From NCBI GenBank assembly GCA_023436245.1, contig JAEZJZ010000020.1:29433-93432 (forward strand): a DNA stretch of 64,000 nt. The letters run 5' to 3'. Positions 31,992-52,441 of the stretch are shown here, in pieces. How positions within the stretch are numbered: position 1 is the stretch's first letter; each line of letters starts with the position of its first letter. Origin of the DNA: Bacillota bacterium. GTDB taxonomy: Bacteria; Bacillota; UBA994; UBA5500. Both the position numbers and the translations under genes were made by a program. Below the pieces are notes generated by a model. The model was not told where the DNA came from, ran no database searches, and saw only the letters and a program-made list of their open reading frames with translations.

Positions 31992-32091
31992 GGCGACCTC
32001 ATAATCCTGACCCTGACACAGGCAGTGCATGACTCTCCTTCATATGGTCTGGACAAGGACGGGAAGACAATTCTATGAACTGGCCTTCGTC

Positions 32092-36400: not shown

Positions 36401-37537
36401 TGAACGCTCGGTTTCGCGCTCCTTGCGTTGCTTCAGTTCAAGGCCCGACTGCTTCTTGCTCTGCTCTGCCTGTCGCTCGCGCAACTCCTGCTCCAATTGC
36501 TGGTGGCGGCGCTCGACGGCGAAGACGTCGTGTTCCTGCAGCTGTTGCTGTTCGCTCTCCAACGCCGACTGCTCTTCCCTCAGATCTTCCCGTGACTGCT
36601 GCAACTGCGTAAGCTGGGCCCGCTGGGACTGCAGCCGATCGCGCAGATCCTGCTCCTGCTGCTCGAAGCCGTGGCAGCGCTGATCAGCCTCCAGCAGGTG
36701 CTTGGCCAACAGCGCCAACTGCCAGCGGTTATAGGTGTCGTAGACACCGGACAGGCGCTCCATGGCCTGCTCGTCCCGCTGCAACTGCTCCAGCTGCTGT
36801 TTGATCTGATCCATGTTCTCAATGGTCTCAGAGAGCGGGCGCAGCTCATCTTCCGAAAGCGGCGGCAGGCTGGAGTTCAAGATTTCATAGATGACGGTGG
36901 GCTTGAAGTCACGCGAAAGCTTGGGGCTGCGCAGCTGAATCAGCAGCTTGATCAAGTCCTCGTAAGCACCCTGGTCCCTGAAGCCAAAGATATACCGATT
37001 CACCAGTTCGGCGTAATTATGCCTGGTTTCCGCTAGCGCGCCGCCGCCCTGCAGGCGGTTGCTCAACTCCTTGCGCGAAAGCGGCACAATCTCTGCGTTA
37101 CCGGTCTCCAGATTAGTCTCTAGCTTATGCAGTTGAAAGCTCTCCCCGATGCGGCGGTTGTCGGTGATCACGAAACCCCAGAACTCCAGCGAGGCATGGC
37201 GGCGCGCCCGCAGCCCGATGCCGCAGGTGAGGTAGCGCTCGCTCTGCTGCCGTTTGAACTCCAGCCAGAGGTAACCAGTGCGTTCCTCCTTGTCACAGAC
37301 CTCGCCCAGCAGATAATCGTCCATGCGCCGGGCGCGGGAGCCAAAGGGGTCGAGGCGATCGGGGCTGGTCTGGCCGTCCAAGAGCACAGGGATAAGGCTC
37401 TGCATGGTCACGGACTTGCCCGATCCATTGCTGCCCCGAAGCAACAGCTTGCCATCGGCAAAAGCAAACTCCTGTTGATCGTAATACCAAAAGTTCAGGA
37501 AGCCAGCCCGACAGGGCTGTAGACGATCTGTTGTCAT
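33395..37537 (-). CDS. jetC: Wadjet JetC-like SMC-family ATPase (TIGR02680-type)
   Basis: 1380 aa. N-terminus MTTDRLQPCRAGFLNFWYYDQQEFAFADGKLLLRGSNGSGKSVT (Walker A). About 1000 aa of Q/E/R/L-rich coiled coil. C-terminus FSGGEKAMAMYIPLFSAAYSRY (signature-like) and ITLDEAFAGVDETNI (Walker B). ATG 37537 is preceded by GGAGGGGTTGGAGGA and forms ATGA with the jetB stop. Confidence 0.75.
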   Translation of the reverse strand: MTTDRLQPCRAGFLNFWYYDQQEFAFADGKLLLRGSNGSGKSVTMQSLIPVLLDGQTSPDRLDPFGSRARRMDDYLLGEVCDKEERTGYLWLEFKRQQSERYLTCGIGLRARRHASLEFWGFVITDNRRIGESFQLHKLETNLETGNAEIVPLSRKELSNRLQGGGALAETRHNYAELVNRYIFGFRDQGAYEDLIKLLIQLRSPKLSRDFKPTVIYEILNSSLPPLSEDELRPLSETIENMDQIKQQLEQLQRDEQAMERLSGVYDTYNRWQLALLAKHLLEADQRCHGFEQQEQDLRDRLQSQRAQLTQLQQSREDLREEQSALESEQQQLQEHDVFAVERRHQQLEQELRERQAEQSKKQSGLELKQRKERETERSLRQQQERAEDLERRLEQKAEDLGDLAEEAAFSEHRDALQHWRRERASGKHDFVLWEQAAAEHLEKLEVGLTAVRQHARAEEQLAEAEKAHATASRAYDDKEREQKQLISDMDQLKEDYLQSLDGWWGGLAHLQLTREEQLRVAQRVMDIYEPHLPSAVLEPIDEAWSRYREQSTAEVAEIKGRMAQQDQGIAAKREEIRCWRERVEPEPERHPETEAARQALVAAEVPHLPFYAAVEFRDDVTPEQRERVEAAICEAGLLDALIVPEQYLAAVNGYDKVIIPHPQFFSHTLADVLQPVPSAQVDGAAIDSVLRSILWSSPENDPGAIVLDMDGRYRIALLTGQAPPRSLSRFIGREARQRYREQMLQQLGAELAVLQAERERVAAELRAVLTCQDQAAEEYRRRPALTALEQHWDSLRRVAEELRVRQSEAARLLQSLLLAEQRFLQTRNQLQRALLGLNLEATELGLTAALQAMRNYRSELHRLQLLDRDWQHTQALLQRLQLDLQAARADVDELQGELNVLAARQRQIAEEIRASERRLLEMGAAEIRARISQVVARLRSLPDLREQVSAQIATLEGETLRGNADSAVVKGRLRAAHAVQAGWQQIFSAEPTLDRYRLPDDASPLELARLITKEMGQLLQTDAGRILFRLNEAFNKEQGLLTDYRPTLNALARELQLPAEAATDELVFSWWQTLREQNQRLSLVLEHQGRTTDIFQVLGALQRDRLEQQQLLAAKDRELYEEIIVHSVGEMIRQRINRADAWVQKISRLMEERDTSSGLTFSLAWKPRTAEHEDELDTKELVELLQMDPVLLKPADSERIAAHFRSQIERARVELAERQQGETLQIVIQRMLDYRLWFDFKLYFRKEGEQRRELTDRVFFTFSGGEKAMAMYIPLFSAAYSRYQDASDSAPRLITLDEAFAGVDETNIRDMFALMQQLELCYIINSQGLWGDYDTAGRLAISELVRPKNAPCVTVVPYLWDGTVRQLQLTAGGEALVRE

Positions 37538-38715
37538 TCCTCCAACCCCTCCTCCGGCCCCGCAAAGTCCGCTGGATAGCTGCCGCTGAATCTGGCCAGG
37601 GCCGAACGCAGGCAAACCGTCCCGGTGCCCGGCTCCACGGCAGCCAACTGCCAATCCAGCAACAGATCGAGCAAGTCTCGCGCCACTTCGTTTAGGTCCT
37701 TCTCGCGGTATTCTTTGGACCAGCCGCGGGCATAACGTTGGCGGCACTCCTGCACCCAGGCCAGATAGCTGGCTTCTGGCAGGCAAAGGCTGCCGTCATA
37801 CTGCAGTGGAATGTCCTCCACCAGATAGTGCTCGCGGGCCAGCCCGGCAAACTGCACCGCAATGTCCTCGATCACCCGACTGCCGGGAAAGGGCCGATAG
37901 CGCGCGAAGCGCTCGGGCAGGGTGAGCATGGAGGCGTTGCGAAAGAGATCGAATTGAAAGTCGAAGTTCTGCTCCAGATCCTCGCGCAGGCGCGAGCGAT
38001 AATTGCGCAAGTAAAGGAAATCCGGATCCTGGTCGTCGCTGCGGTGGATGACCGGGCAGAAGAGCAGTTGGCGATAGATGCGGTGGCGACGGCGGACGGT
38101 GGGATCAGCCGCCAGATCGCTCTCCAAGAGCTGCACTGGATCGTCCAGGGACTGCAAACCATGCGGCAAGTTGCGCAGAAAGTAGCGAACCACCGGAGTC
38201 ACCTCGTAGAGCACCTCGGCCTCACTGCGGCTGAACTGGTCCACCTCGCCATCCACCACCAGCAGCAGGCCAAACTCGCTGGCCACGCGCATCACCCGCA
38301 CCAGCGACTTGCGATGCTCATAGTTGGTCCAATCCAGCCTGCCTGTTTCCGGGTAGAGCGACTGCAACTCCTCGCAGAGTTGGGACAGCAAGAACTGTTC
38401 TTCCACCGCCAAACCCTCCAAGAAGGCCAGCAGGCAGCAGAAGATGGTGTAGTCACGCGTGCTGGTGAAATCCGGGATGCCCATCCAGGGCAGCGGAACA
38501 GCCGGCACCTTCTCCAGCTTGGCGAAGTGCCGGTGCACAACCAGACGCAAACCTGCCTTGTCCCAAAACCACTTGCGCAGCGTTTCCTCCCGCCGACGCA
38601 CCAACTGGTATTTTTCCGGCTCCCGCCGACGCAGAATCCAGAACTGCTGCAACAGATCGGCGGCCGCCTCTTTGGCCAGCTCGTCAAAGCCAGCATTGCT
38701 GATCTGTGATTCCAT
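37534..38715 (-). CDS. jetB: Wadjet JetB-like protein (TIGR02678 / DUF2398-type)
   Basis: 393 aa, second in the operon. Start MESQISNAG after GGGAGTGAGG. The 12-nt overlap with jetA and the ATGA overlap with jetC indicate translational coupling. Assignment rests on size, order and context only. Confidence 0.55.
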   Translation of the reverse strand: MESQISNAGFDELAKEAAADLLQQFWILRRREPEKYQLVRRREETLRKWFWDKAGLRLVVHRHFAKLEKVPAVPLPWMGIPDFTSTRDYTIFCCLLAFLEGLAVEEQFLLSQLCEELQSLYPETGRLDWTNYEHRKSLVRVMRVASEFGLLLVVDGEVDQFSRSEAEVLYEVTPVVRYFLRNLPHGLQSLDDPVQLLESDLAADPTVRRRHRIYRQLLFCPVIHRSDDQDPDFLYLRNYRSRLREDLEQNFDFQFDLFRNASMLTLPERFARYRPFPGSRVIEDIAVQFAGLAREHYLVEDIPLQYDGSLCLPEASYLAWVQECRQRYARGWSKEYREKDLNEVARDLLDLLLDWQLAAVEPGTGTVCLRSALARFSGSYPADFAGPEEGLEE

Positions 38716-38723
38716 TGGGGGCC

Positions 38724-40193
38724 TCACTCCCAAAACTCCAAAGTATAATCCGGCATCAGCAGGCTGCCATCGCAGGCATGCAGCCAAATCTGCCCTGGCT
38801 GCACTTGCAGGCGAAAGCGGCGCCCGCTTTCCGTGCTGCCAATGCGCTCGCTGCTGGCCAGGGCGCGGGCAATCCAGCCGAGCAGCGTCTTGCGCAGCAA
38901 CGGCTCCACCACTCCCAAATCAGCCACCCGCAAGCTGCCTTGCTTGGCCAACTGCTGCAGGATGGCGGCTTCGGCGTGCTGTTCCTGCAGGTAACTGGCC
39001 AACTGCGCCGTCTTCTCCGCCGTTCGATCCATGATGGCAGTGGAGCGACTCTTCTGCCGATAGGTGCGCACCCGCGGCTCCAGCGGCAGGGCCAGGGCAG
39101 GCCGATCCCAGGTCTCAGCATAGATGTCTTCCGTGTCGCGCCCAGGCGCGTAGAAGTGGCGTGTATCCTGCAGGCCGAAAACACTGGCGGAGAGAATGTG
39201 AGCGTCCGCCAGCGTAGGGCAAGCGGCAAACCGCTGCGCCAACTGCAGATACTCCTGCCGACGGCTGCGCTGCTGCTGATGTCGTTCACCCAACCGCTGC
39301 ACAAACCGGGTGATGCGCCGAATAGCCTCATGCGTCTCCAACTGCAACTGATAGCGATCGCTGCTGCGTCCCGGCTCGCCAAGAAACCAAGAGCGGAAGT
39401 TGGTCCACTGGCGACGGTAGCTGGCGAGCAACTGGTCACGCGCTGGGCGTTCATCCAACCGCGGAATGGAGAGGGCATAGTCCGCCAGTCGCTCGCAGAT
39501 CAGGTCCAGCCGCTGCTGGTCGACACCAGCGAGCAGAGACTCGATCTTCACAGCAGCCCGCTGCAAGGCACTGACGAAATTGCGCAGATAATCACCCAAG
39601 GAGTCCCTGTAGACCAGAAAGGCGTCGACATTCATCAAAGCCTCGCTGCGCTCGCTGCTCAGGTAGGCCAGGTAGCTGGTGGCGTTGGTGGTCAGGCGAC
39701 GGAAAGCCGCAAACAGATCAGTCCACCGACCCTGCAGTTCCTCAGCCGTGACCTGATTGCCCAAAGCGAGAAATCGCTGCAGCGTCTCCAGCAGGCGATC
39801 GACATCGGTGCGCTCCAGCGAGCCACCGAAGGATGACCCCATCTGTTCCAGATGCATGACCATGCGCTCAATCTCGATCGTGTAGGCAGTCGCCTGGTAG
39901 CGAAAACGCTTCTTGCGGAACTCCTCGACGCTGGCCACCCGGCGGGTGTCCTGCCGCGCCACCAGATTGCCCCATTCCACCAGTTGGTTCAGGTCCTGCT
40001 CTAGTTCGTTCTCGCCGTACTGAGCGAAATACTGATTCAGAGCGAACTCACGCAGCAACTCCTCGGGATAGAGGAAATGCCGCATACTCTCGTGCTGCAA
40101 GTAGAAGTGACGTAAGATCGACCGATAACGCCAGGCATTGCCGGCCGTCAGGTAACTGGCTTCAGTCAGCGGCCGCAGTAACCGTTCATCCAT
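38724..40193 (-). CDS. jetA: Wadjet JetA-like protein (TIGR02677 / DUF2397-type)
   Basis: 489 aa, first gene of the operon. RBS GAGGGAG. No catalytic motif. Assignment rests on size, order and context only. Confidence 0.55.
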   Translation of the reverse strand: MDERLLRPLTEASYLTAGNAWRYRSILRHFYLQHESMRHFLYPEELLREFALNQYFAQYGENELEQDLNQLVEWGNLVARQDTRRVASVEEFRKKRFRYQATAYTIEIERMVMHLEQMGSSFGGSLERTDVDRLLETLQRFLALGNQVTAEELQGRWTDLFAAFRRLTTNATSYLAYLSSERSEALMNVDAFLVYRDSLGDYLRNFVSALQRAAVKIESLLAGVDQQRLDLICERLADYALSIPRLDERPARDQLLASYRRQWTNFRSWFLGEPGRSSDRYQLQLETHEAIRRITRFVQRLGERHQQQRSRRQEYLQLAQRFAACPTLADAHILSASVFGLQDTRHFYAPGRDTEDIYAETWDRPALALPLEPRVRTYRQKSRSTAIMDRTAEKTAQLASYLQEQHAEAAILQQLAKQGSLRVADLGVVEPLLRKTLLGWIARALASSERIGSTESGRRFRLQVQPGQIWLHACDGSLLMPDYTLEFWE

Positions 40194-40340
40194 AGCATCT
40201 GCTCCCTCATCGTTGCGCCCGAGGGCGCATTACCGTCAGAATTCGTTACAGAAGCCGCTCACCCCTGCCTAAGTGATAGCAACTTGCCATCTCAGATGGC
40301 TTCCTCTCCGTGGCTGACTGTTCTAGCCGGGGTCCAATGA

Positions 40341-40372
40341 CAGAGGCCCGGGAGCACCGACTCCCGAGCCTC
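40341..40372. terminator. Near-perfect palindrome AGAGGCcCGGGAGcaccgaCTCCCGaGCCTCT downstream of the parE-like gene
   Basis: 13-bp arms, 14 bp after the stop at 40386 (minus strand). Confidence 0.45.
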
Positions 40373-40385
40373 TGTTATCTCCCGG

Positions 40386-40715
40386 CTACTCTTGTTCAAC
40401 GTCTGTGCCAAATAGGGAGTGCAGCCAGTTCTGCCGTCCATGCAGCACTCGAGCGATGACGATTTGCTCGTCCATCACTCGATAGAACACCAAATACGGA
40501 TTGACAACAATCCGCCTATATCCCGGCAAAGCACCGGGAGCGTCTTCAGGCGGGACGACCGCACCCAGTTCCGGGAACTCGGCCAATCCCTTGATTCCCT
40601 CGTAAATGCGCCGCCTAAGTCGTTCCGCCGCCTCTCTATTGTCGACAACGATGTAGGAAAAGAGGCTATCGACATCAAAATAGGCGGACTCCGAGAGAAC
40701 GATCCGCTTAGGCAT
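40386..40715 (-). CDS. parE: ParE/RelE-family toxin
   Basis: MPKRIVLSESAYFDVDSLFSYI...NREAAERLRRRIYEGIKGLAEFPELG...YRRIVVNPYLVFYRV.DEQIVIARVLHGRQ is the typical ParE pattern. Confidence 0.7.
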   Translation of the reverse strand: MPKRIVLSESAYFDVDSLFSYIVVDNREAAERLRRRIYEGIKGLAEFPELGAVVPPEDAPGALPGYRRIVVNPYLVFYRVMDEQIVIARVLHGRQNWLHSLFGTDVEQE

Positions 40716-40998
40716 GATCGATCCTCCGTTTGATATCCTCCATGGTCTGCTCAAAGTCCCGCATAGGGGTCCCTTTGGAGATTTCCAGATCCACCTCCGC
40801 CAGCATTTGCCCTAAGCGATGTCTGGCCATCAGTTTCTGAAAGGCCTCGTGACTCATCACGACCAAATCTGCCTCTCCGTTCTTGGTGACGACCACTGGC
40901 TCTCCAGTCTCATGACAAAACCTGGAGAAAGAACTATAGTCGTGCCGAATCGCCGTGGAAGGCTTAATGGCCGTGATTATCTGTACCGGACGACTCAT
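40708..40998 (-). CDS. Phd/YefM-family antitoxin
   Basis: FSRFCHETGEPVVVTKNGEADLVVMSHEAFQKL. Overlaps the toxin start by 8 nt. RBS AAGGAGG. Confidence 0.65.
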   Translation of the reverse strand: MSRPVQIITAIKPSTAIRHDYSSFSRFCHETGEPVVVTKNGEADLVVMSHEAFQKLMARHRLGQMLAEVDLEISKGTPMRDFEQTMEDIKRRIDHA

Positions 40999-41318
40999 GC
41001 TACTACCTCCTTAACCACTATTATGTCAATATTATATCATAGACGGCTTCGTTTCGGCACGCCTGCGCCACCCTATATGCAGCCAGGTGGCATCCTCAGG
41101 GGTGAGCGCCATTCTGTGGCGATGGATGGCGAATCACAAGGATAACCCGGCGAGCACACACAAGGCCTCACCATGCGCTGTCGCGCATAGTGAGGCCTTT
41201 CTTGCGGGAGCGAACGAACAAGGAGGTGAAGTCGGGAGGCAGCGACATCGTAATTGTCGGCGACTGCGCAAGACGCGCGGACTGCGTCCTCTGCGTCAGA
41301 CCGGTCAAGAAGTCGGGG

Positions 41319-42971
41319 CTATGTGCTCTTGCGGAATCGGCGGCTCGCAACATAGGCTCCCAAAACAGCAACCAGAACCAGCCATTGTAGCCACTGGTTG
41401 TCCACTGCTGCGGCATCATCGTCCTCCGCATCGGCATTGTCGGTTGCCTCCAGATCCTTAATCGACCGCTGACCGCTGTCAACGACCTTGTTGCCCGCCG
41501 CGTCAACGGCCTCAACCATGTAGTGCAGAGTAACACCCGGCGGCACGTCGTTGAGCTCATGTTGAAAGATGAGCTTAATGTGCTGCCCGTTGGCAGTATG
41601 CTTCGGCCTCTGCAGCGCTAGTTCCGGCTGATGTGTGTCGATCAGATGATGCAGTTGGCCGTCCTGTTCATACCAGACCCGCATGTGCGATCGATAGAAT
41701 GAGAAATCTGCGTTGAGATCCGTGATGGCAACGATGAAGTCCCAAATCTGAGCGGTCTGTGGGACTAAATCAACCTCCAGACGTGGCGGTTCACGCAGCA
41801 GTTGATCGGCCGGCAGCCACCGCCCCAACCAACGAGCCATGAAAGGGCTCCAGCAGACGGGCTGATAGGGCGGTCCGATCGCAGTTACCTCTCTTGCCCA
41901 ATGATAAAGCTGCGCCATCTCGGCAGTCATCGCCTGCGCCTGGTAATGCCCGCCCAGATGAAACAAGGCATCACCAAAGGCAGCCCAGGCGGAATGCACG
42001 CGGTTTGTTTCCGGGATGACCAGCGAACCGGGTTCGCCACTCATAGCCAGAAGTCGCTGCCAACTGGCGATGGCGGCATCTGTCCGACCCAACGCTTCCT
42101 CGGCCATAGCCTGCAGATAGGTCAGCGCGGCGTCAGTCTTGTCAGCAGGGACCACCTGCCGCAACTGCGCAATCCGCTGCAGTACTTGCTCAGGCTCGCG
42201 TAACAAATCCAACTGCTCCAACTGCCACCGCAAGTTCTCGTCCATCCCGCTCAGCATGTAAGAGGCGGGACTGCGTAGATTGGCTACCAGTCGCAGATCC
42301 GTTGTCGGCTCAATATCCTGCCACTCCCAGACCAGGAGGTCTCCATCAAAACGGAAATCCCCTGGGAATGCGCCTACCAGCTGAGATGGCCGAATGTCCA
42401 TGAGCTCCACCGTCAGCTTGGCCCGACCGATGGGACCATGCCAAAGGGAGCCGGTGGTCATGACGTATCCAGTCTCCACCCAGCCCTGGGAATCGTACGA
42501 GTTGGTCACCCAGTAGGTGTTTCTGACCTCCCTGGTCTGACCGGCCGAGAACTGCATCTCCCAAGTCAGCCAAGACGGATAATCGTAGGCCCTCGGGTTC
42601 TGGTCCGGCTGCAGCCCCACCTCTCTTATGACCTGCACCGGCTGCCCGTCTACTGTGGCTGAGAACTCATGCAGTGTGGTGTCAACTCCCGGCTCGTCAC
42701 CGTTCAAGCTGCCTTCCGGAAATCCCACCAGGATGCTGGTGCCAGGCCCATCATTGCGAAAGCGAAAGGTGGCTGTGACCTCGCACCTGGTCGGATACAC
42801 CTTGATGTAGACATCTTCCTCAACCATGCGCACCTGCGAGCTATGGATCGGCTGCACTGCTTCGCCGATCCGACCGAGCACCGCATCGTCAGCCGCCACG
42901 CTGCCGGGGAACGCCAATAACAGCAGCATTACGCCCAAAGCCAGCATCCAGCCTCGCATTCCTGCCGTCAT
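41319..42971 (-). CDS. Secreted/membrane-anchored hypothetical protein with an acidic C-terminal tail
   Basis: Signal peptide MRGWMLALGVMLLLLAFPGSVAA. C-terminal TM helix WLQWLVLVAVLGAYV preceded by DNADAEDDDAAAVD. RBS GAGAGGAGGA. Confidence 0.5.
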   Translation of the reverse strand: MTAGMRGWMLALGVMLLLLAFPGSVAADDAVLGRIGEAVQPIHSSQVRMVEEDVYIKVYPTRCEVTATFRFRNDGPGTSILVGFPEGSLNGDEPGVDTTLHEFSATVDGQPVQVIREVGLQPDQNPRAYDYPSWLTWEMQFSAGQTREVRNTYWVTNSYDSQGWVETGYVMTTGSLWHGPIGRAKLTVELMDIRPSQLVGAFPGDFRFDGDLLVWEWQDIEPTTDLRLVANLRSPASYMLSGMDENLRWQLEQLDLLREPEQVLQRIAQLRQVVPADKTDAALTYLQAMAEEALGRTDAAIASWQRLLAMSGEPGSLVIPETNRVHSAWAAFGDALFHLGGHYQAQAMTAEMAQLYHWAREVTAIGPPYQPVCWSPFMARWLGRWLPADQLLREPPRLEVDLVPQTAQIWDFIVAITDLNADFSFYRSHMRVWYEQDGQLHHLIDTHQPELALQRPKHTANGQHIKLIFQHELNDVPPGVTLHYMVEAVDAAGNKVVDSGQRSIKDLEATDNADAEDDDAAAVDNQWLQWLVLVAVLGAYVASRRFRKST

Positions 42972-43042
42972 CCTCCTCTCTTCTTGAAACAGAGGGGACT
43001 GGCCCCGCTGTTTCGTCTGGTGTTCTCCCCGGCCGCTCTCTG

Positions 43043-43522
43043 CTATCGTGGCCGCCGGGCGGCATGGATGAAGAAGCTGACTAGCTCGTGGCCGACGGCA
43101 GCATCCTCAGGGGAGGGGTCAGTGCGGGTAAAGGTCAGCGTGATCGGATACTCGCGCGAGTTAAAGACTAGGGTATCATCGTCCAGCCGCTCCAATGGCA
43201 TGCCATCCTCCGCATCATAGCCCCATGGGGCCGACTTCAACACAAAGGGCTGGTCGCTGATGAGCCAGATCATCTCTTTGCCGCCATAGAACGGACCGAA
43301 GCCCGACTGCGGACTATATGACAGCACTATCTGCTCGCCGCCCGGATTGTAGTGATTGTTGATCATAGCCACCTTGTCGCCAACTGTAGTCAAGTGCTCG
43401 TAGGCCCAATCTCCGATACCAAACGCCTGGAAGAACTGCACCCGCGACCAAGGATCATAGAGAGCCAGAGTGAGCAGAAAGGCCGTCAAAGCAACGGCTA
43501 CCAGCAAGTTCTTACCCCGCAA
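43043..43522 (-). CDS. Hypothetical membrane-anchored protein
   Basis: TTG start 43522 follows AAGGGAGG. TM helix LLVAVALTAFLLTLALY. Confidence 0.4.
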   Translation of the reverse strand: MRGKNLLVAVALTAFLLTLALYDPWSRVQFFQAFGIGDWAYEHLTTVGDKVAMINNHYNPGGEQIVLSYSPQSGFGPFYGGKEMIWLISDQPFVLKSAPWGYDAEDGMPLERLDDDTLVFNSREYPITLTFTRTDPSPEDAAVGHELVSFFIHAARRPR

Positions 43523-43807
43523 GCTGTCGGCCTCCCTTGGCGCCGGCTGGCGGCCAGTGCCGTTTATTGGCAACAGTATATCATGCCGGGCATGGTCCTG
43601 ACAGCACCAGGATGGCCTTCCGTATGATGCACTATGGCGCATTGAGCACACGTTCTAGCGAGGTGTCCTCGTTTTACCGAGGCAAACGGACTCATTCCGG
43701 GAGAGCTAAGCCCAGGCGAGCGCCCAAGCTTTTTGCTTGGCGTTTCTCCTGTCAGGGGACCGGCTCCTTCACGCAAAGAACCACAGCCGCCGATGGCTGT
43801 GGTTCAA

Positions 43808-43906
43808 TCACAAGATATTCGGGCACCTAAGGGCCGCAACGGCCTGGACCGCTTCCTGAGTCAAGTCCTGACTGAAGTCCCTAACATCCCGAAGATCCTC
43901 CCGCAT
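43808..43906 (-). pseudogene. Possible truncated HepT (DUF86/HEPN)-like toxin remnant downstream of the MNT gene
   Basis: 32-codon ORF MREDLRDVRDFSQDLTQEAVQAVAALRCPNIL* begins 17 nt after the MNT stop. Weak resemblance to the N-terminal helix of HepT. Confidence 0.2.
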
Positions 43907-43922
43907 GTGCAACAGGACGGCC

Positions 43923-44132
43923 TTAGTTCTCCGCTCGCTCATAGACAATCCTCGCTTTTCGCTTGATGTCATAGCCGAACTTCTGCTCCAATCTCTCGGC
44001 CTGCTTGGCGGTGATTACGTCAACTGCCTTACCGGCAGCTAACTCAAGCTCCTGGGTCAGAGAGATAAACTGCAATCCCATCGGAGACCTAAGCTCCACC
44101 AGCACATCAAGATCACTATCGGACGTCTGCAC
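43923..44132 (-). CDS. Minimal nucleotidyltransferase (MNT/MntA-like antitoxin), probably 5'-degraded
   Basis: ...FGSVDPWGTGCVQTSDSDLDVLVEL matches the GS-N10-SDLDVLV nucleotidyltransferase motif. The in-frame upstream region has no ATG/GTG/TTG before the GTG at 44132, which falls inside the motif. Confidence 0.45.
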   Translation of the reverse strand: MQTSDSDLDVLVELRSPMGLQFISLTQELELAAGKAVDVITAKQAERLEQKFGYDIKRKARIVYERAEN

Positions 44133-44361
44133 GCACCCGGTTCCCCAAGGATCTACACTCCCAAACCTTGAAGTTTCGCGCGTTTGTTGATAATATCCAA
44201 CTTGTTTGCTCGGGGGAGGCGGGCTTCCTTTGCGGAAACACTAGAGATCCAGGAAAGAGTTGGGACTATGACCTAGAGGAGGATCTGGCGAGTATAGGAT
44301 TGGAATGCCGAGAGATAGCGGGTAGGGTAGATAGAACACCGTACTGAAGGGAGTGCTAGTG

Positions 44362-44670
44362 ATGAGAATCTTGAAGATATCGGGAGTGCTGATTCTTCTT
44401 GTGGTTGCTGTCATAGCCACATTGTTAGTTGCTTCTAGGATCAATCACGCAAGGCGATTAGGGAGAGAGGCTAAAGAATATCCGCCACCGGGCAATATGG
44501 TAGAGGTAAACGGCAAGAAGTTACACGTATATGCAGAAGGTGTTGGAAGCAGCACGCTCGTGTTCATGGCAGGCCACGGTACCAGCAATCCAACAATGTT
44601 ACTGCTATCACCGTTTGTCCGGCAACAGACGGCACGAACTGTCCTGGAGTTGACGGAACGGTTGTCCTGA
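44362..44670 (+). pseudogene. N-terminal fragment of an alpha/beta-hydrolase gene, low GC
   Basis: MRILKISGVLILLVVAV...MVEVNGKKLHVYAEGVGSSTLVFMAGHGTSNP is the typical N-terminus of an alpha/beta-fold hydrolase. No nucleophile-elbow region follows. GC about 48% versus about 60% for the window. Confidence 0.5.
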
Positions 44671-44889
44671 AGAACAGCTTCGTTAGGGGAAGCAGTTGTC
44701 CAGGGCCACCGGCTGTGAGTTCAAGGTAGGCGTCCCCGAGAGTGGGTTTATCGCTTTTGTTCTCCCCAAACTGCGGCGCTTTGTGCTAAGAGGCGGCCCT
44801 GCTCTATGGGCCGCCCAGTTTGGTATAGAATCCCACAGGGCGCTCAGGTCGTCCCCCGACGTTGCCCTATCCTCCCTGTGGGCAAGAGC

Positions 44890-45771
44890 CTAGGAGAGTT
44901 CACCGTCGACCACGCGCTTGGCCATGTGGTCATCAATGATGCGGTGTTTGTTGTGGGCGCCATAGATCAGGCAATGCGTGCAAAGCTTGTTGATCATCCT
45001 GGCCGAGCCGGAGGAGTAGCGGTAGATCTCGTCCAGCGCGCCCTCGGTGAAGATGTCACGTTCAGCTCCAGCATAAGCCATGTGGCGCTCAATGTAGGCA
45101 GCAACTTCTGCGCGATCATAGTGGTGTAGCTTGCACTGCAGGTCGATGCGCTGGCGAATGGCCGCGTAGGCCTGTAGCACCAGGCGTTCCCAGAGTTCGC
45201 TTTGCCCGACCAGGATGAGAGCCATTGGACTCTCGGCATCCATGCGGAAGTTCAGCAGGAACCTCACTTCTTCGAACATCTCCCGATCCAGGAGATGGGC
45301 CTCGTCGATGACCACGACCGGCTGCAGGTGATGAATCCCTTTCATCAGCTCTATCTCGCGGTGTAGCTGACGTTTGGCATCGCCTCGGTAGAATTTGGCC
45401 TCGCAACCTAACTGCTCCAGCAGCCCCTTGTAGAAGTGGCGGGGCGTGAGCTTGGAGTCGGCTAGATAGAGCAGTTTGAAGCGAGACTGGTCCAAGGTTT
45501 CGGAGAAGCAGCGGATGGTGGTTGTCTTGCCGGTACCGGGGTCACCACTGACCACCGCAAACCATTGCCGCTCGGCTGCATAGGTGAGCCGCCCCAGCGT
45601 CTCCTCAAGCTGTACTGATCGGTAGAGTTTCTGGGTTGGAATGTCCCGCGAGAATGGAGAATGCGACAGGCCATAGAATGACTCAAACATGACTATCCTC
45701 CCGCACCAACCGGTAAGAGACGGCTGGAGCCACCCGTTCCTGTCTCTCTTGGCTCTTGGCGCCGGCGGCAA
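44890..45771 (-). CDS. istB: IS21-family helper ATPase IstB
   Basis: VSGDPGTGKTT (Walker A), VVIDEAHLLD (Walker B), AAA+ fold. Confidence 0.85.
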   Translation of the reverse strand: MPPAPRAKRDRNGWLQPSLTGWCGRIVMFESFYGLSHSPFSRDIPTQKLYRSVQLEETLGRLTYAAERQWFAVVSGDPGTGKTTTIRCFSETLDQSRFKLLYLADSKLTPRHFYKGLLEQLGCEAKFYRGDAKRQLHREIELMKGIHHLQPVVVIDEAHLLDREMFEEVRFLLNFRMDAESPMALILVGQSELWERLVLQAYAAIRQRIDLQCKLHHYDRAEVAAYIERHMAYAGAERDIFTEGALDEIYRYSSGSARMINKLCTHCLIYGAHNKHRIIDDHMAKRVVDGELS

Positions 45772-47023
45772 TGAGCAGGCGTGAGGAATCTGCTATGCGC
45801 GTGGTCAGGTGATCCGGCAGAGGTGGGCGATCGCCTACTTTAGCACCGATGACCAGTTCCCTAACCCGCCAGGGTTTGTGGCCAGAGTACTCAATCGTCA
45901 GTTCGGTGGTATCTTGCGGATCGTAGACTACGTCAACCTTGCAGCCGAGGAAACTGACGCCGACCTCATACTTACGGCCGAGGAAGCTGATGCAGCCGGC
46001 CTTATCCACTTTACGTTGCTCGCAATGCAGAAAGGCGTCTGCCAGTAGTTCCGGCTCCACAAACCGGAGGGGCTTGCTGTCGCTCCGGTAGGCTTCTTCC
46101 GGGCTTTGGCCTAGGGCAGAGTGAGGTTTGTGCTGGTAGCATTCCGAGAGCCAGACCTGAAACAGTTCGTTCAACTGGTCTAGGGTCTTGGGCCTCTGCA
46201 AAGATGCCTCTTTCAGGAACGAGTCAACGACTCTGTTGAATCGCTCCACCTTGCCTTTTCCCTCGGGGGAATACGGTTTGGCGTACAGCAAGCGAATGCC
46301 TAGCTTAGAGCAGGTTCGCTGCATCCAGGTGGTGCGGTATTGCTTGCCGTTGTCGAAGTAGACGGCTTCCGGTACTCCGTACTTCTGAATCGCCCGGCGG
46401 AAGCAGTCTTCTACCACCGCCTGATCCATAACAGGATAGAACTCTCCGTGCAGCACCAATCGAGTGGCATCGTCCAGGAAGGTGACCAGGTAGACCTGCT
46501 TGCTGGTGCCGTTAGGACCGATTGGCAGGTATGGTCCGTACTTCAGATCAGACTGCCAAAGACGATTGCGATGGGGTTGTTGCCACCGCCGCGTAGCCAC
46601 TCCCGTTTCGGCATACATTCGCATCTGGCGGGTGCTGTAACCTCTCTCGGTCAGTTTCTCTTGTAGGGTGCTGCGCCGGATCTGACCTTTCTCAATCAGG
46701 CCTTCCCACTCCATGATCTGTATTAGCTGGCTGACGCTCCGGCTGGGCACTTCCCGCCGTAGCATAATGGCCTGTTCCAAGACCTCTTTCGGAATGGCGC
46801 TGGACGCCTGCTGGCTCTTGGCTCTCGGTTGCAGACCAATGAAGCCCTCTTGGCGGTACCTGGTCAGGTAGCGCCTGAGGGTACGGTCCGAGATGCCTGT
46901 TTCTTGACAGATGCGGGTTCGTAACTCCCTAGCTTTGGCCGAATCGAGTTCCCCGGACAGGAGTGGAGCCAACAACTGCACTCGCTTGGTAGCAATCTCT
47001 TCCGCTTTTTGCTTGTCTTTCAT
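45683..47023 (-). CDS. istA: IS21-family transposase IstA (HTH + DDE)
   Basis: N-terminal HTH ...ICQETGISDRTLRRYLTRYRQEG. DDE region DLKYGPYLP...VYLVTFLDDATR...DNGKQY. Start chosen at ATG 47023 after GGGAGAG. The ORF is open to the GTG at 47149. Confidence 0.8.
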   Translation of the reverse strand: MKDKQKAEEIATKRVQLLAPLLSGELDSAKARELRTRICQETGISDRTLRRYLTRYRQEGFIGLQPRAKSQQASSAIPKEVLEQAIMLRREVPSRSVSQLIQIMEWEGLIEKGQIRRSTLQEKLTERGYSTRQMRMYAETGVATRRWQQPHRNRLWQSDLKYGPYLPIGPNGTSKQVYLVTFLDDATRLVLHGEFYPVMDQAVVEDCFRRAIQKYGVPEAVYFDNGKQYRTTWMQRTCSKLGIRLLYAKPYSPEGKGKVERFNRVVDSFLKEASLQRPKTLDQLNELFQVWLSECYQHKPHSALGQSPEEAYRSDSKPLRFVEPELLADAFLHCEQRKVDKAGCISFLGRKYEVGVSFLGCKVDVVYDPQDTTELTIEYSGHKPWRVRELVIGAKVGDRPPLPDHLTTRIADSSRLLIAAGAKSQERQERVAPAVSYRLVREDSHV

Positions 47024-47058
47024 GCTCATCTCTCCCTTGCTTGACCTCGTTTTCGAGT

Positions 47059-47601
47059 CTAGCAAGGGGAGTGTTCGGGCAGCCATGCAGAACGGGTATG
47101 TACCCAAAGATTTGCGTTCACGATCGGTCGGACAATCTGCTTCAGCCACCCGCTGGCCGATCCGACCAACTGTTTAAGCCTCTGGTGTGCCGACTGTGCA
47201 GGGCTGGCCGGGCTCTCCACAGGGCCTGTCTCATACCGAACGGCGATAGAGGCCAGGCATCCGAGCCAATAGGTCACGTTCTCCGTGACCCAACGCTTCC
47301 AACGGTTGACGGTGGCCTCATCTGCTGGGGCTGTGTTTTCCTCCCGGCTAGACAAGATCTGTTCCACGCACTCCGCTCTGTAGCGTTTGTATGGCACTAA
47401 GAAGTCCGGCAGCTCATGATGGATTCGTCCGCAGCTCTGACACCGCAGCCGGCGGATGTACGCTGCATTCTTCTCGCCTTCATCGTCGATGAACCCACGA
47501 GATCGACTACCAATAACCTTCATTTCGCCGTCGCAGCAAGGACACGGGATCTTCTCTGCACACCTAATAAAACACGCCGGGAGACTTCTCAACCAGCTCA
47601 T
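47059..47601 (-). CDS. Zn-ribbon protein (CPCC...C..C) immediately upstream of istA, DUF6431-like IS21 accessory ORF
   Basis: CPCCDGEMKVIGSRSRGF...RRLRCQSCGRIHHELPDFLVPYKRY. The position, co-oriented directly upstream of istA, recurs in IS21-family elements. Confidence 0.5.
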   Translation of the reverse strand: MSWLRSLPACFIRCAEKIPCPCCDGEMKVIGSRSRGFIDDEGEKNAAYIRRLRCQSCGRIHHELPDFLVPYKRYRAECVEQILSSREENTAPADEATVNRWKRWVTENVTYWLGCLASIAVRYETGPVESPASPAQSAHQRLKQLVGSASGWLKQIVRPIVNANLWVHTRSAWLPEHSPC

Positions 47602-47764
47602 AGTTTGATACTATGATCATGTTATTTCTTGGGAGACGTCTCCGGTGAGCCTGCGTCAACAGGTTCACGCTTTACGGAGGCGTGTTTGCTTTCCTAAGAT
47701 ACGGTCATTATATCCAGCAGACTCTGGACAGGCAACAACGTCAGCTTCTTGACCTTTCATTGCG

Positions 47765-48256
47765 TCAGAAACATCCGTCTTTGAATATCCACTCACGCCG
47801 CCGGCCGCATTCGCGAAAGCCCACCTTCTTGTAGCAAGTGATGCCTGCTTGGTTATCGGCGTCGACGGAGAGCATGATATTGTGCAGATTCATGGTTTGG
47901 AATCCGTACTCCAGAATCAGCCGTATGGCTTCTGCGCCGTAGCCCCTGCTCCGGTGTTCCTCCTCTCCAATGAAAATCCCCATGAACGCGTTACGGCTAC
48001 GGTGATCGATATTCTGCAGGCTGATGCACCCAATCATCACTTCACCGTCTAGCAGCACTATAGCGTAGCGTTGCGTGTCGCTGGCCGGCTCAAAGAGCCA
48101 TTTCATCTCGCTCTTTGATGAGACTATCCAGTGATACTGGCCGAAACTGCCGGCGACTGCTTTGTCGTTCATCCACTTGCGGTATGTTTCCGCATCATCG
48201 GGGTTGACAGGCGAAAGGTAGAGCCGTTGGCCAGTTATCTTGCGAAAATAGCGCAT
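47765..48256 (-). CDS. GNAT-family N-acetyltransferase (RimJ/RimL-like)
   Basis: MRYFRKITGQRLYLSPVNPDDAETYRKW...FIGEEEHRSRGYGAEA. ATG 48256 follows GGGAGGTG. Confidence 0.7.
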   Translation of the reverse strand: MRYFRKITGQRLYLSPVNPDDAETYRKWMNDKAVAGSFGQYHWIVSSKSEMKWLFEPASDTQRYAIVLLDGEVMIGCISLQNIDHRSRNAFMGIFIGEEEHRSRGYGAEAIRLILEYGFQTMNLHNIMLSVDADNQAGITCYKKVGFRECGRRREWIFKDGCF

Positions 48257-48563
48257 GAGTACACCTCCCTGTTTTTCATAGAAGTTTTCATGAACATCAT
48301 ACTCCAAGGCAAATCTGCCGTCGTTCGATCTAGTCATATGATGATGGATTAGTGGCGGAGGTGAGGAACGCAGCAGCTTCACAAAGTGGCTGGAAAGAGT
48401 CTCTTCCGGCGTCTCACTCGAATCGCCTACGCAGGCCGCCGTCACCCTAACCGTAGGAGCCAACTCTTCAGCGGACCTTACCAGCAGCGATGCTATGCAA
48501 TTGCGGAAGGCAGAAGGAAAAGAGTGACGCCAGTAGCATCACTCTCCTCGCACACCAGGTACC

Positions 48564-50198
48564 TTATTCCGTTATAATCTCCGGCCCATCATACCACTTC
48601 GGAGTCTTATAGTGTTTGGCCATTTGAGGACGATATTTAGCCATTTGCTCACTCAGGAATCCTACCGGTGGGGCAACTTCCTTACCTTCCGGAACGAAGA
48701 ACTTGCCGTTTTCAGGATCATATGCGTATTTTCCTGCCCTACCAAATATGAACGGTAGGTAAGATTCAAACTGGGCTTCCCCGTTATCATCCAAGATTAG
48801 GTTCTTGCCATCATTCTTGTAGTTGTAGAAGTGCTCTGCCTGCATCTTTCTGAAATCTTCCCTAATCTCAGCTACTTTGTCGGGATTGGTCAACAGTTCT
48901 ATGGCACTTACCGCCATTGCTTGGGCACCCGCGATCAGCCCTTTATGGGCAACAGTAGAACCGGTTACCGCAGTAGTAGTCCAATGATGGCCGATGGCTC
49001 CCGGAGCAGAAGTGGGGAACCTAACACTTGTAAGAGGCACAACTAAGGAAACCTCGCCTATGTCAGAAGATCCTCCGCCCACAAATACCTCAGGGGATCC
49101 CTTTGGCTTATCCTCAATTGCCGAATCATCGGGAAGGCCCTTTTCTTCTGCACCTGCAGATCTCTGCAATGCCTTGATGAACTCGTGTTCATCCTCAGTC
49201 CACTCAGGCATACCCACCTTTTTGATGTTCTCTTGCACCATGTGGGCTAGAGTCTCATTTCTATAGCACTGATGGATTGCAGTGTACGGGGTAATCTCCA
49301 TTTGGGTATCTGTGGCAAGGGCTGCGGCTTTGGCACAATTTAGCACTCTCTCGAAGTCAGACTTAATCAGTTTGTCCGAGTTTCTCACGAAATACCAGGT
49401 GGTTGCTCGATCCGGAACTACGTTAGGGCCTTCTCCACCCTCGGTCATCACATAATGCAATCTGGATGTGTAGTGCAAATGCTCACGCAGGAACTCGGTA
49501 CTCACGTTCATTATTTGCACAGCATCTAAAGCTGATCTGCCGACCCAGGGAGCTCCGGCAGAGTGAGCGGTTGTTCCGCGGAAGGTAACGGAGAAGGACC
49601 AGTTGGTATTACTACCTACTCCGTAAGATGCACCAAAGCCATCTCCCCCATGGTTATCAATTACAACATCTACGCCGTCAAACACGCCGGCGTAAACCAT
49701 GAAAGGACGGCTAATTACGGTTTCTTCAGCAGGGCTACCAAACATCTTAATGGTCCCGGTAAATCCCCCGTCTTCCATAGCTTTCTTGACTGCTACAACC
49801 GTACCGGCAGCCGCAGTTCCCATAGTATTATGAGTACAACCATGACCCGGCGCCATGGCTCCTTTTATTTCGGTTATGGGGGCGTGGGTAGGGTTTCCTG
49901 CCTCTTGGGATAGCATTGGTAGTGCATCTAACTCGCCTAATACGCCAATGGTTGGTCCAGGGCCATTGGAAAAAGTGGCAACGAAGGCAGTTGGCATTCC
50001 GCCTACCCCTTTTTCAATTGTGAAGCCTTCCTTTTCCAGGTAGTTTATCAGTAGGTTCGCGGTGTTGTATTCCTCTAAACCTAACTCCGCATAGGACCAA
50101 ATGGCATCATTAATCTCCGCCAACATTTCCCGAGTCTCACTTTTTTGCAGAAAATCAATGGCAACCTGTTGGTTCTTATCAAATGCTTCTCTATTCAA
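48564..50198 (-). CDS. M20-family amidohydrolase/peptidase, low GC
   Basis: M20 metal-binding regions (...GHGCTHN..., ...GSPAEE...). 544 aa. Codon usage and GC (about 45%) differ from neighbours. Confidence 0.65.
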   Translation of the reverse strand: MNREAFDKNQQVAIDFLQKSETREMLAEINDAIWSYAELGLEEYNTANLLINYLEKEGFTIEKGVGGMPTAFVATFSNGPGPTIGVLGELDALPMLSQEAGNPTHAPITEIKGAMAPGHGCTHNTMGTAAAGTVVAVKKAMEDGGFTGTIKMFGSPAEETVISRPFMVYAGVFDGVDVVIDNHGGDGFGASYGVGSNTNWSFSVTFRGTTAHSAGAPWVGRSALDAVQIMNVSTEFLREHLHYTSRLHYVMTEGGEGPNVVPDRATTWYFVRNSDKLIKSDFERVLNCAKAAALATDTQMEITPYTAIHQCYRNETLAHMVQENIKKVGMPEWTEDEHEFIKALQRSAGAEEKGLPDDSAIEDKPKGSPEVFVGGGSSDIGEVSLVVPLTSVRFPTSAPGAIGHHWTTTAVTGSTVAHKGLIAGAQAMAVSAIELLTNPDKVAEIREDFRKMQAEHFYNYKNDGKNLILDDNGEAQFESYLPFIFGRAGKYAYDPENGKFFVPEGKEVAPPVGFLSEQMAKYRPQMAKHYKTPKWYDGPEIITE

Positions 50199-50403
50199 CG
50201 TTTTCTCCTCCTTTATTTAGGCACTAATAGGAGCAGGCTACTTCCTACCTTCACCTCCACTTATTTTTGTATGCGTAATAAGCTTATCATCAGACGCTTG
50301 GGGTTTCTACAACTATCGGCAGATAATTGTGCAAAAAAATGCAGGCAGATGAAAAAGCCACCCATTGATAGATCTCATTCTATCAATAGATGGCACTATA
50401 CTT

Positions 50404-50750
50404 GGTGGAGGCGGGGGGATTCGAACCCACCGTCCGAAGGCCAGCCAGCCAGAGCTTCTCCGAGCGCAGTCCATGCTTTGAATTTCGCTCGGTGACGCCC
50501 CCGTGGACAGGGTCGTTACTTCGCTAGCCCGTTAATTTCCCGACCGATACCAGGCGCTCTCGGTCAGTAGACTACTGTTCATGACGCCCGCATCTGAACC
50601 CCAGTAGACACAGTTTCAGGCAGACGGCGGCCTTAGGCCGCGATTGCTAAATTGTTGTTAGCTATTGTTGTTTTCCCTGTTTTACGGGTACCAGGATCCC
50701 CGGCTCGCTACTCCAACCCACAGAACCCCCGTCGAAACCATGTCGCCCCC
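50404..50750 (-). ncRNA. ssrA: tmRNA (ssrA)
   Basis: Minus strand 5'-GGGGGCGACAUGGUUUCGACGGGGG ... GGAUUCGAACCCCCCGCCUCCACCA-3'. 7-bp acceptor pairing between the ends. Internal tag ORF ...GCU AAC AAC AAU UUA GCA AUC GCG GCC UAA encodes (A)NNNLAIAA*. Confidence 0.9.
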
Positions 50751-51418: not shown

Positions 51419-52441
51419 CTAGAGGACGCGCACGATCCAGCCTTCTGGAGCTTTGACATCGCCAAACTGAATGCCGCACAGCGTATCGTAGAGCTTGCGG
51501 GTGACCGGGCCGACTTCGGTCTCGCTGTGGAAGACGTGCAGCTTGCCCTGGTACTCGATGCCGCCGATGGGTGTAATCACGGCGGCTGTGCCGCAAGCGC
51601 CTGCCTCAGCGTACTGGTCGAGCTGATCGATGTAGACGTCGCCCTCTGCCACATCCATGCCGAGATAGTCACGTGCCACTTCCAGCAAAGAATACTTGGT
51701 AATGCTCGGCAGAATTGACGGGGAGGCCGGCGTGATGAAGCGGTTGTCTTTGGTGACGCCAAAGAAGTTCGCTGCGCCAACTTCCTCAATCTTGGTGTGA
51801 GTAGCCGGGTCGAGGTAAATGCAGTCAGCAAAGCCCTGCTTTACTGCCAGATGATGCGGCATCAGGCTGGCAGCATAGTTGCCGCCGACTTTGGCTGCGC
51901 CGGTGCCGCTGGGAGCTGCCCGGTCAAAGTCGGAGACGGAGAAGTTGACCGGCTTCAGACCACCCTTGAAGTAAGGGCCAACCGGCGAGCAAAAGACGGA
52001 GAAGATGTACTGGTCCGCCGGGCGCACGCCCAGGTTGTCGCCGACGCCAATCACAAACGGGCGCAGGTAGAGGGTTGCGCCGCTGCCGTAGGGAGGCACG
52101 TAAGCCTCGTTCGCCTTGACCACCTGTTTGCAGGCGTCGATGAACCGCTCCACCGGAAACTCAGGCATGAGCAGACGACGGCAGCTCTCCTGCATGCGCA
52201 AGGCATTTCTGTCCGGCCGAAAGAGTTGCACATGCCCATCTTTGGTGCGGTAGGCCTTCAGTCCCTCAAAGCATTGCTGGCCGTAATGCAATGCCGGCGA
52301 ACCCTCACTGATGTGCAACTGGTTGTCTGTAGTCAGGGTTCCCTCGTCCCATTGTCCGTCTTTCCAGACGGACAGGTAGCGGTACTCGGTCTTCATGTAG
52401 GTGAAGCCAAGTTTACCCCAATCGATCACGGGTCGTTCCAC
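51419..52441 (-). CDS. ilvE: Branched-chain-amino-acid aminotransferase (fold-type IV)
   Basis: ...SPALHYGQQCFEGLKAYRT...TLYLRPFVIG...AAKVGGNYAASL... Confidence 0.85.
   Translation of the reverse strand: MERPVIDWGKLGFTYMKTEYRYLSVWKDGQWDEGTLTTDNQLHISEGSPALHYGQQCFEGLKAYRTKDGHVQLFRPDRNALRMQESCRRLLMPEFPVERFIDACKQVVKANEAYVPPYGSGATLYLRPFVIGVGDNLGVRPADQYIFSVFCSPVGPYFKGGLKPVNFSVSDFDRAAPSGTGAAKVGGNYAASLMPHHLAVKQGFADCIYLDPATHTKIEEVGAANFFGVTKDNRFITPASPSILPSITKYSLLEVARDYLGMDVAEGDVYIDQLDQYAEAGACGTAAVITPIGGIEYQGKLHVFHSETEVGPVTRKLYDTLCGIQFGDVKAPEGWIVRVL

Follow-up and report, generated by a model that had tools for sequence, protein, structure and literature searches.

The DNA directly downstream of the transfer-messenger RNA (tmRNA) gene ssrA was analysed in a stretch of 64,000 nucleotides from a Bacillota bacterium (assembly GCA_023436245.1, contig JAEZJZ010000020.1, positions 29,433 to 93,432), hereafter called the window, to whose numbering all coordinates refer. 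These ~10 kb (40386-50750) are an ordinary variable region of the chromosome, and they probably consist of three unrelated pieces rather than of one or several integrase-borne islands. The piece closest to ssrA would be a single horizontally acquired gene for an AbgB-type M20 amidohydrolase, leader included (48564-50334), fixed beside ssrA before the lineage split. The second would be a multi-copy transposon, named R here, which on its right cuts a GNAT acetyltransferase gene at the 3' end and on its left cuts an unrelated membrane-protein gene after codon 78; its two flanks would have been joined either by homologous recombination between two copies or by an adjacent deletion or inversion accompanying intramolecular transposition. 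The third would be DNA of host composition carrying a decayed MNT/HepT-type pair, two open reading frames (ORFs), and a Phd/ParE pair together with a type II Wadjet system. An earlier note, made from the sequence alone, had read the same layout as serial acquisition of islands at the 3' end of ssrA, followed by decay.

In order to evaluate this proposal, we started from ssrA itself. The tmRNA gene was confirmed as full length with both ARAGORN and Rfam, and a terminator follows it closely:

50403-50750, minus strand: tmRNA gene ssrA, intact, tag ANNNLAIAA (ARAGORN; Rfam RF00023, 176.4 bits, model positions 1-374 of 374)
50357-50394, minus strand: intrinsic terminator of ssrA, a 16-pair stem then a T run, starting 9 nt past the tmRNA 3' end (terminator scan)

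On the other side of ssrA lie smpB, a class IV aminotransferase gene, rnr, NMO, H+-PPase, secG and eno; ssrA is the last gene of a conserved glycolysis-secG-rnr-smpB-ssrA block, beyond which the variable DNA starts. ssrA is a documented integration hot spot, at which islands are bounded by a direct repeat of about 20 bp of the ssrA 3' end and usually carry an integrase adjoining the repeat (PMC3146451). Exact and mismatch-tolerant searches gave no second copy of the 23-nt ssrA 3' end with up to 3 mismatches, and its last 14 nt matched, with up to 2 mismatches, on the opposite strand only. Aligned locally with the 50.4 kb downstream on the same strand, the last 60 nt of ssrA scored 12.0 at best, compared with 11.7 ± 0.9 for block-shuffled sequence. 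The attachment-site repeat (attR) for which the earlier note had proposed a search was therefore not found above chance in these 50.4 kb, and the ssrA 3' end was likewise not repeated in L091, the nearest relative, described below. The remark that no integrase is visible was upheld: Pfam and NCBIfam models detected no integrase or resolvase among the ORFs of 40.2-50.8 kb (at least 60 amino acids (aa) and judged to be genes) or in the large ORFs between 1 and 32 kb, where ORFs below 150 aa were scanned only in part. The sole recombination-type match was the rve-type transposase of R. No relative with an empty ssrA flank was found in the species-representative and metagenome collections. The region does resemble the ssrA-targeted genomic islands of Dehalococcoides (PMC3146451), in that variable and partly foreign DNA with toxin-antitoxin (TA) and defence genes lies directly 3' of an intact ssrA; unlike those islands, it has in common with its nearest relative the gene proximal to ssrA, and most of it is of host-like composition. 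Because there is neither an att repeat nor an integrase, because M20 is common to L091, and because the rest is host-like and linked to ssrA only via a multi-copy transposon, a mechanism of serial ssrA-targeted islands is not supported. What stands of that proposal is the mosaic itself, the foreign gene at the ssrA 3' end, the TA decay and the mobile element.

Base composition was scanned in 2-kb windows over the 64 kb (mean GC 0.582 ± 0.028). Just two segments were outliers in GC or tetranucleotide usage. One, at 47-51.5 kb, reached extremes of -3.4 for the GC z and 4.1 for the tetranucleotide z; the other, the Wadjet operon, is GC-rich (0.621) and has a tetranucleotide z of 2-3. The interval 40.4-47 kb, which holds ParE/Phd, the two ORFs, the MNT remnant and the transposon, stayed within ±1.1 standard deviations of the window. 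This sliding-window check bore out the patchiness attributed to the whole region for 47-51.5 kb and for Wadjet, but showed 40.4-47 kb to be ordinary. GC was 0.492 over 47.8-50.4 kb. Gene by gene, GC at third codon positions (GC3) was 0.477 for M20 versus 0.62-0.78 in all other genes tested, GNAT included (0.665), and besides M20 it is AT-rich intergenic spacers that make up the remaining low-GC anomaly of 47-51.5 kb. The compositionally foreign part near ssrA is the M20 gene with its intergenic flanks only.

This gene and its upstream region are placed as follows:

48564-50198, minus strand: AbgB-type M20 amidohydrolase, GC 0.486, GC3 0.477 (TIGR01891, 199 bits, cut-off 153.75)
50199-50334, minus strand: M20 promoter/leader region, conserved with L091 (blastn and MAFFT alignment)

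The family had been named correctly from the sequence, while the GC content given for the gene, ~45%, was too low. L091 comes from the metagenome collection and is the nearest relative (SmpB 89% identical in aa, tmRNA 86% in nt, tag peptide identical). In L091, ssrA is followed by M20 in the same orientation (92% aa and 86.6% nt identity) and then by unrelated genes, and the GC of M20 is 0.44 versus 0.51 in its flanks. The presence of this ssrA-M20 adjacency in L091 indicates that it is older than the split of the two lineages. About 70 nt between the M20 leader and ssrA could not be aligned with L091. Upstream of M20, ~140 nt (L091 3353-3490) are as conserved between both relatives as the coding sequence. 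The block common to the window and L091 reads TTGCACAA...TGTAGAAAC..., and part of it recurs upstream of the homologue in L173. This conserved stretch may be a promoter or a leader; in an Rfam search of 43.6-50.4 kb at E<=1, the tmRNA end alone was matched and nothing was returned for the leader.

Homologues of M20 form a dense series at 76-94% identity. Those of 81-91% identity whose contigs were read, in hosts of 31-51% GC, stand in unrelated contexts without ssrA or smpB, and what can be aligned among them is the coding sequence to within a few tens of bases. Proteins 86% identical to M20 (79% at the nt level) occur in genomes of ~32% GC, while in the two collections scanned no SmpB outside L091 exceeds 71% identity over its best-matching segment. 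Close M20 proteins across hosts of diverse GC, homology confined to the coding sequence and this low SmpB identity together point to horizontal spread of a single gene. These sequence relationships, together with the composition of M20, show it to be an old single-gene horizontal import that was fixed beside ssrA before the split from the nearest relative. The plasmid collection held no match above 41% identity, and no vehicle was identified. In low-GC genomes that share one and the same M20 homologue, P0010 (L176 6903-16903; L177 11638-15649; L179 6897-10795), the downstream DNA varies between samples, one locus having Hachiman (HamA and a DEAD helicase) and an Eco57I-type restriction-modification system and others having McrBC; no tRNA or tmRNA gene was found in these three loci. 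The DNA beside this homologue looks, from its gene content, like a defence hot spot in another lineage.

The second piece, R, is a complete element, delimited as follows:

44597-47774, minus strand: complete three-gene DDE transposon R, 3,178 bp (assembly break points and reading of the ends)
47059-47601, minus strand: R gene 1, DUF6431 zinc-ribbon protein, 180 aa (PF20020, 104 bits)
45683-47029, minus strand: R gene 2, DDE transposase with helix-turn-helix (HTH), rve and Mu-transpos_C domains, 448 aa (Pfam)
44890-45690, minus strand: R gene 3, AAA+ helper ATPase, 266 aa (AAA_22, 86.9 bits)
44616-44703, plus strand: four same-sense TGTCCNG motifs in the leftmost 107 nt of R (motif search)
47724-47730, minus strand: one inward-facing TGTCCNG near the right end of R (motif search)

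Its extent was established by means of two assemblies of one sample, ENA ERZ28596075 (metaSPAdes-like) and Logan SRR13347280, which were found by exact-protein look-up. In both, the flanking contigs are 100% identical to the window and break at R: their last positions are 47720 and 47745 on the right and 44651 and 44626 on the left, that is, 55 and 30 nt inside the same two positions, 47774 and 44597. Contigs stop 55 or 30 nt into R because de Bruijn graphs built with k=55 and k=31 meet several flanks at the repeat; breaks on both sides thus indicate that R is multi-copy in the sample and place its edges at 44597 and 47774. In either assembly R itself makes up a contig of its own (99.97-100% identity). 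These separate contigs end before the right end of R, at 47347 (ENA) and 47579 (Logan), and one of them carries a single mismatch. This suggests that copies of R differ in, or that some are devoid of, the last 200-430 nt with the DUF6431 start and promoter. Exact look-up of the DUF6431 protein returned no record.

The termini of R read TGTTACTG... and ...CAGAAACA(T), the second end being TGTTTCTG when reverse-complemented, so that the element has TG...CA ends. A search for long terminal inverted repeats gave a weak internal 24-nt pair only and was abandoned in favour of the assembly break points. TGTCCNG is expected about 0.04 times per 90 nt on one strand (53 matches on both strands of the 64 kb), and the motifs at the two ends probably serve as binding repeats for the transposase. 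A promoter-like site lies inside R, upstream of DUF6431, and the first 160 nt of R align with the DNA upstream of DUF6431 in the Planococcus and Alicyclobacillus plasmid copies mentioned below. The start of the ATPase gene overlaps the transposase stop by 8 nt, ATGTTTGA.

R is bordered by halves of two different genes:

47775-48256, minus strand: GNAT acetyltransferase, host-like GC3 of 0.665 (Pfam Acetyltransf_3/4)
44365-44596, plus strand: 5' stump (78 codons) left of a membrane-anchored gene that R interrupts after ...FMAGHGTSNPT; the end of the called ORF is R sequence

The GNAT gene, already noted in the earlier reading, runs in frame through ...EWIFKDG and then takes two codons and a stop from R (CF-stop). 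Profile coverage ends at 148/155 (Acetyltransf_4) and 147/156 (PseH), so that the C-terminus is missing; the frame running into R and the end of the profile coverage together indicate that R cuts the 3' end of the gene. An attempt to size the truncation against a GNAT of a related locus was dropped because homology was insufficient. The stump ORF reads ...VFMAGHGTSNPT and then continues into R, while its homologues P0122-P0125 continue with (L/I)DFKP.WMRM..EYRIAV.EKSGYGWSE past the junction. Since they continue exactly where R begins, the stump is the 5' part of a real gene. A truncated gene is thus present as had been proposed, but the alpha/beta-hydrolase label it had received has no profile support, as neither the stump nor its homologues gave any Pfam hit. 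Exact-protein look-up of the stump ORF of the NCBI assembly, P0121, returned no record. The flanks of R, ...ccaacaa and (t)ccgtctt..., differ, and this copy therefore has no target-site duplication (aacaa versus ccgtc/tccgt). Halves of two unrelated genes without a duplication rule out a simple insertion. We infer that the two flanks were joined in a transposon-mediated rearrangement, or else by the path of the assembler through the repeat. The junction between the stump and R is also present on a 105-kb contig of the NCBI assembly.

The third piece extends leftwards from R, and its Wadjet operon reaches beyond the ~10 kb considered here:

43923-44200, minus strand: MNT pseudogene, MntA-type nucleotidyltransferase antitoxin (NCBIfam MntA, 26.2 bits, cut-off 60; positions 21-85 of 106)
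43808-43942, minus strand: 44-codon ORF overlapping the MNT stop, at the position of a HepT toxin (translation)
43043-43642, minus strand: ORF of 199 aa, one hydrophobic segment, no family hit, host-like composition
41319-42959, minus strand: exported protein of 546 aa with a signal peptide and a C-terminal membrane anchor (weak match of the DUF4424 N-terminal domain, PF14415, 32.2 bits; GC3 0.684)
41065-41066, no strand: synteny breakpoint relative to L086, with different genes beyond, including a Crp-family regulator
40386-40998, minus strand: intact Phd (96 aa)/ParE (109 aa) type II TA pair (PF02604, 40.5 bits, cut-off 29.8; PF05016, 66 bits, cut-off 23)
32092-40193, minus strand: complete type II Wadjet operon jetA2-B2-C2-D2 (Pfam; PADLOC)

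The MNT gene was correctly described as lacking a proper start. Its in-frame fragment (43923-44132) comprises the C-terminal 69 codons, the PADLOC PDC-S09 match begins at profile position 36-39 (of 101), and three-frame translation showed the N-terminal third to be spread over three frames with a stop, with at least two frameshifts upstream. The HepT-like remnant of 32 codons did not fare as well, since the ORF has 44 codons and gave no Pfam hit even at E<=10; it can be taken for a HepT remnant by position only, and a hairpin (43778-43805) follows it. What was found is accordingly not the full-length pair of MntA and HepT (DUF86) that defines a type VII TA system. The ORFs of 546 and 199 aa, which together make up about one fifth of the region, were missing from an inventory that was otherwise largely right; the shorter is called as 159 or 199 aa in other assemblies.

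The ParE/Phd pair and the Wadjet operon were both recovered as announced. In the former, the antitoxin gene comes first and overlaps the toxin gene by 8 nt; both products score above their profile cut-offs, other assemblies contain an identical pair, and the pair has been kept in L086. This JGI contig is 94.4% identical to the window over 38039-41065, which covers JetB, JetA, ParE, Phd and 67 nt upstream. The match followed by divergence at 41065 indicates that Phd/ParE and Wadjet travel together and that the 3.5 kb up to R are variable. The four Wadjet components were recognised by PADLOC with E-values of 1e-170 (JetA2), 6e-135 (JetB2), 0 (JetC2) and 4e-127 (JetD2). GC dips on either side of the operon (31.3-32.2 kb; 40-41 kb), and beside it lie two small ORFs that gave no hits (31509-31739 and 31746-32030). 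The composition of the operon (33500-40000, GC 0.62) suggests that it was itself acquired.

Other explanations of the layout have to be weighed against that of three unrelated pieces. Successive integrative elements could have entered the 3' end of ssrA and later lost their integrases and att repeats by decay, with M20/GNAT, the TA modules and Wadjet as their cargo. The reputation of ssrA as a hot spot with a ~20 bp repeat of its 3' end (PMC3146451), a compositionally foreign M20 gene directly abutting it, TA modules and a defence system typical of island cargo, and a gene content that differs beyond M20 in L091 and beyond 41065 in L086 would all suit such a history. We nevertheless consider it unlikely, as no repeated copy of the 3' end of ssrA rose above chance in the 50.4 kb downstream or in L091, no integrase or recombinase was seen in the region or in the large ORFs scanned in 1-32 kb, the ssrA-proximal gene is common to the nearest relative, and 40.4-47 kb is not only host-like in GC, GC3 and tetranucleotide usage but also connected with the ssrA side solely by way of a transposon whose flanks do not match. 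At the opposite extreme, nothing in the region might be foreign: M20 would be ancestral, with a low GC due to constraints of its own, and vertical inheritance would have been disturbed only by the insertion of the transposon. M20 is indeed kept beside ssrA in L091 and most of the region has host composition, but the GC3 of M20 lies 0.15-0.30 below that of every other gene tested in the window, and proteins 86% identical (79% nt) occur in unrelated contexts in ~32% GC genomes while SmpB does not exceed 71% outside L091, which makes this explanation highly improbable.

There is a small but appreciable chance that the arrangement is an artefact of assembly, in which the contig threads a multi-copy repeat of 3.2 kb onto the wrong flank, so that the stump, MNT, Phd/ParE and Wadjet would not truly lie beside GNAT, M20 and ssrA. 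Two short-read assemblies of the same sample end at the edges of R from both sides, and halves of different genes without a target-site duplication have the look of a wrong join. However, an NCBI assembly independent of these two contains the stump-R junction within a 105-kb contig, both flanks are of similar composition, consistent with one genome, and rearrangements mediated by insertion sequences (IS), which commonly occur, leave the same signature. Several points weigh against our explanation by three unrelated pieces. The physical link across R comes from the window's own assembly, and the multi-copy nature of R was deduced from the behaviour of assembly graphs and not from a count. The antiquity of the ssrA-M20 adjacency is drawn from one relative, and an ancient ssrA-targeted element that had lost its integrase and attR would give the same picture for M20. 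A close relative (>95% identity) with an intact ssrA flank was not found, and we therefore infer the order of events. On balance, the three-piece explanation still appears the probable one.

R had been presented as a complete IS21 element with an accessory zinc-ribbon ORF. Its completeness and its zinc ribbon were verified, but neither the assignment to IS21 nor the accessory status of the zinc-ribbon gene held. Among NCBIfam models, the transposase scored 68.7 bits with the IS21 model NF033546 (cut-off 160) and best with IS481, at 193.6 bits (cut-off 224). It contains PF00665 (rve, 55.5 bits, cut-off 32.6) and PF09299 (Mu-transpos_C, 28.6 bits, cut-off 21.7), and its nearest PDB sequence is IS5376 IstA, over the catalytic core only (E 3e-9). 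The ATPase matched the ExeA-like TIGR03015 with 143.6 bits and fell just short of TniB (PF05621, 22.3 bits versus a cut-off of 22.4); in the PDB it comes closest by sequence to MuB (E 9.5e-5) and then to TnsC (E 2.6e-3), and no IstB family appeared among the Pfam and NCBIfam hits at E<=0.01 or in the PDB search. IS21 was consequently rejected, given a transposase under the cut-off, no IstB, an ExeA/AAA_22 ATPase, a Mu-transpos_C domain and a third conserved gene.

R resembles IS21 in having a transposase gene of the DDE type followed by an overlapping AAA+ helper gene, TG...CA ends with subterminal repeats, and a size of ~3 kb; unlike IS21, which is made of IstA and IstB, it has a DUF6431 gene, an ATPase nearest to MuB/TnsC and a Mu-transpos_C domain. 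With the IS481/ExeA pairs of Geobacillus and other plasmids it has in common the best-scoring IS model and the annotated pairing of transposase and ATPase, whereas it differs from IS481 by a score under the cut-off, an extra N-terminal HTH and the C-terminal Mu-transpos_C, and the Bacillota subgroup has DUF6431 upstream. The modules of Mu, Tn7, Tn5053 and Tn552 also have a Mu-transpos_C transposase and TG...CA ends with repeats; the ATPase of R is weakly similar to MuB, TnsC and TniB, and R likewise possesses a third small protein, here a zinc ribbon. R is nonetheless much smaller than these and has no cargo, no resolvase and no TnsA. The usual host of Tn552 is Staphylococcus, and Tn552 was discarded as the closest family since no Staphylococcus was among the hosts listed in the ATPase search of the plasmid collection. 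As a small third component, the zinc-ribbon protein may loosely recall TniQ.

Plasmids of Alicyclobacillus dauci (identities of 65.5% and 76.7%) and Planococcus lenghuensis carry the trio of DUF6431, transposase and ATPase, annotated without a name, and a Ruminococcus albus plasmid has a related transposase of 48% identity. The closest annotated copy, on the A. dauci plasmid NZ_CP104065.1, contains in addition a small DUF5348 gene (L089 5155-5391) that overlaps the ATPase gene at its end and is absent from the copy in the window. We detected 239 homologues of DUF6431, mostly in Bacillota, and many of them lie on contigs of ~3.0-3.3 kb with the same signature of a repeat contig. By gene context, DUF6431 is a conserved first gene of the R family and not an accessory one. 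In those parts of the literature that were searched, DUF6431 was encountered only as an entry in a gene table. An AlphaFold2 model of the protein (mean pLDDT 64) gave no Foldseek hit against the PDB below E 1e-3, with TM-scores of at most 0.23; the weak top matches, to zinc-ribbon/coiled-coil regions of serine integrases, were rejected as not significant, and a sequence search of the PDB gave no match. We put forward, tentatively and as the less probable case, that R represents a widespread and formally undescribed Bacillota family in which DUF6431 would be a third essential component of transposition, a partner that binds DNA or selects targets for the IS481-like/Mu-C transposase and the MuB/TnsC-like ATPase, making the element a minimal three-component relative of Tn7/Tn5053.

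The smpB side of ssrA had been described as conserved and homogeneous. Its composition is indeed homogeneous, but the gene order is not kept in L091, where NMO lies directly upstream of smpB and neither rnr nor the aminotransferase gene is found at that place, which indicates that this "conserved" side has been rearranged too. In the window, an IlvE-like class IV aminotransferase gene (51419-52441, minus strand, with 52592-54733) lies between smpB and rnr; of 80 distant Bacillota smpB loci, none has an aminotransferase gene in this position. The closest SmpB proteins of the species-representative genome collection are 68-71% identical, too distant for an empty-site comparison; rnr-smpB is kept at 50 of the 80 loci, and the genes of our region were found next to ssrA at none. 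At the far end, just beyond Wadjet (28602-31421), lie an M24 peptidase gene (28602-29864) and a second M20 peptidase gene (30018-31421), the latter of host composition, and a D-aminopeptidase gene and peptide-type ABC transporters lie further left of 28602. With the D-aminopeptidase, M24 and second M20 genes nearby, the foreign AbgB-like M20 is one among several peptidase/amidohydrolase genes of the window.

These results call for caution: a tRNA or tmRNA gene beside patchy DNA rich in TA and defence genes is not by itself evidence of site-specific integration. Here a transposon-mediated junction explains the layout, which might even stem from the route of the assembler through a repeat. Of all the parts, just the unnamed three-gene transposon family has some novelty; the trio of DUF6431, transposase and ATPase is a common and apparently active element, which goes without a name in annotation pipelines and is readily taken for IS21. 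The M20 gene beside ssrA, in turn, illustrates how a single amidohydrolase gene travels among Bacillota of widely differing GC as a bare unit the size of its coding sequence.

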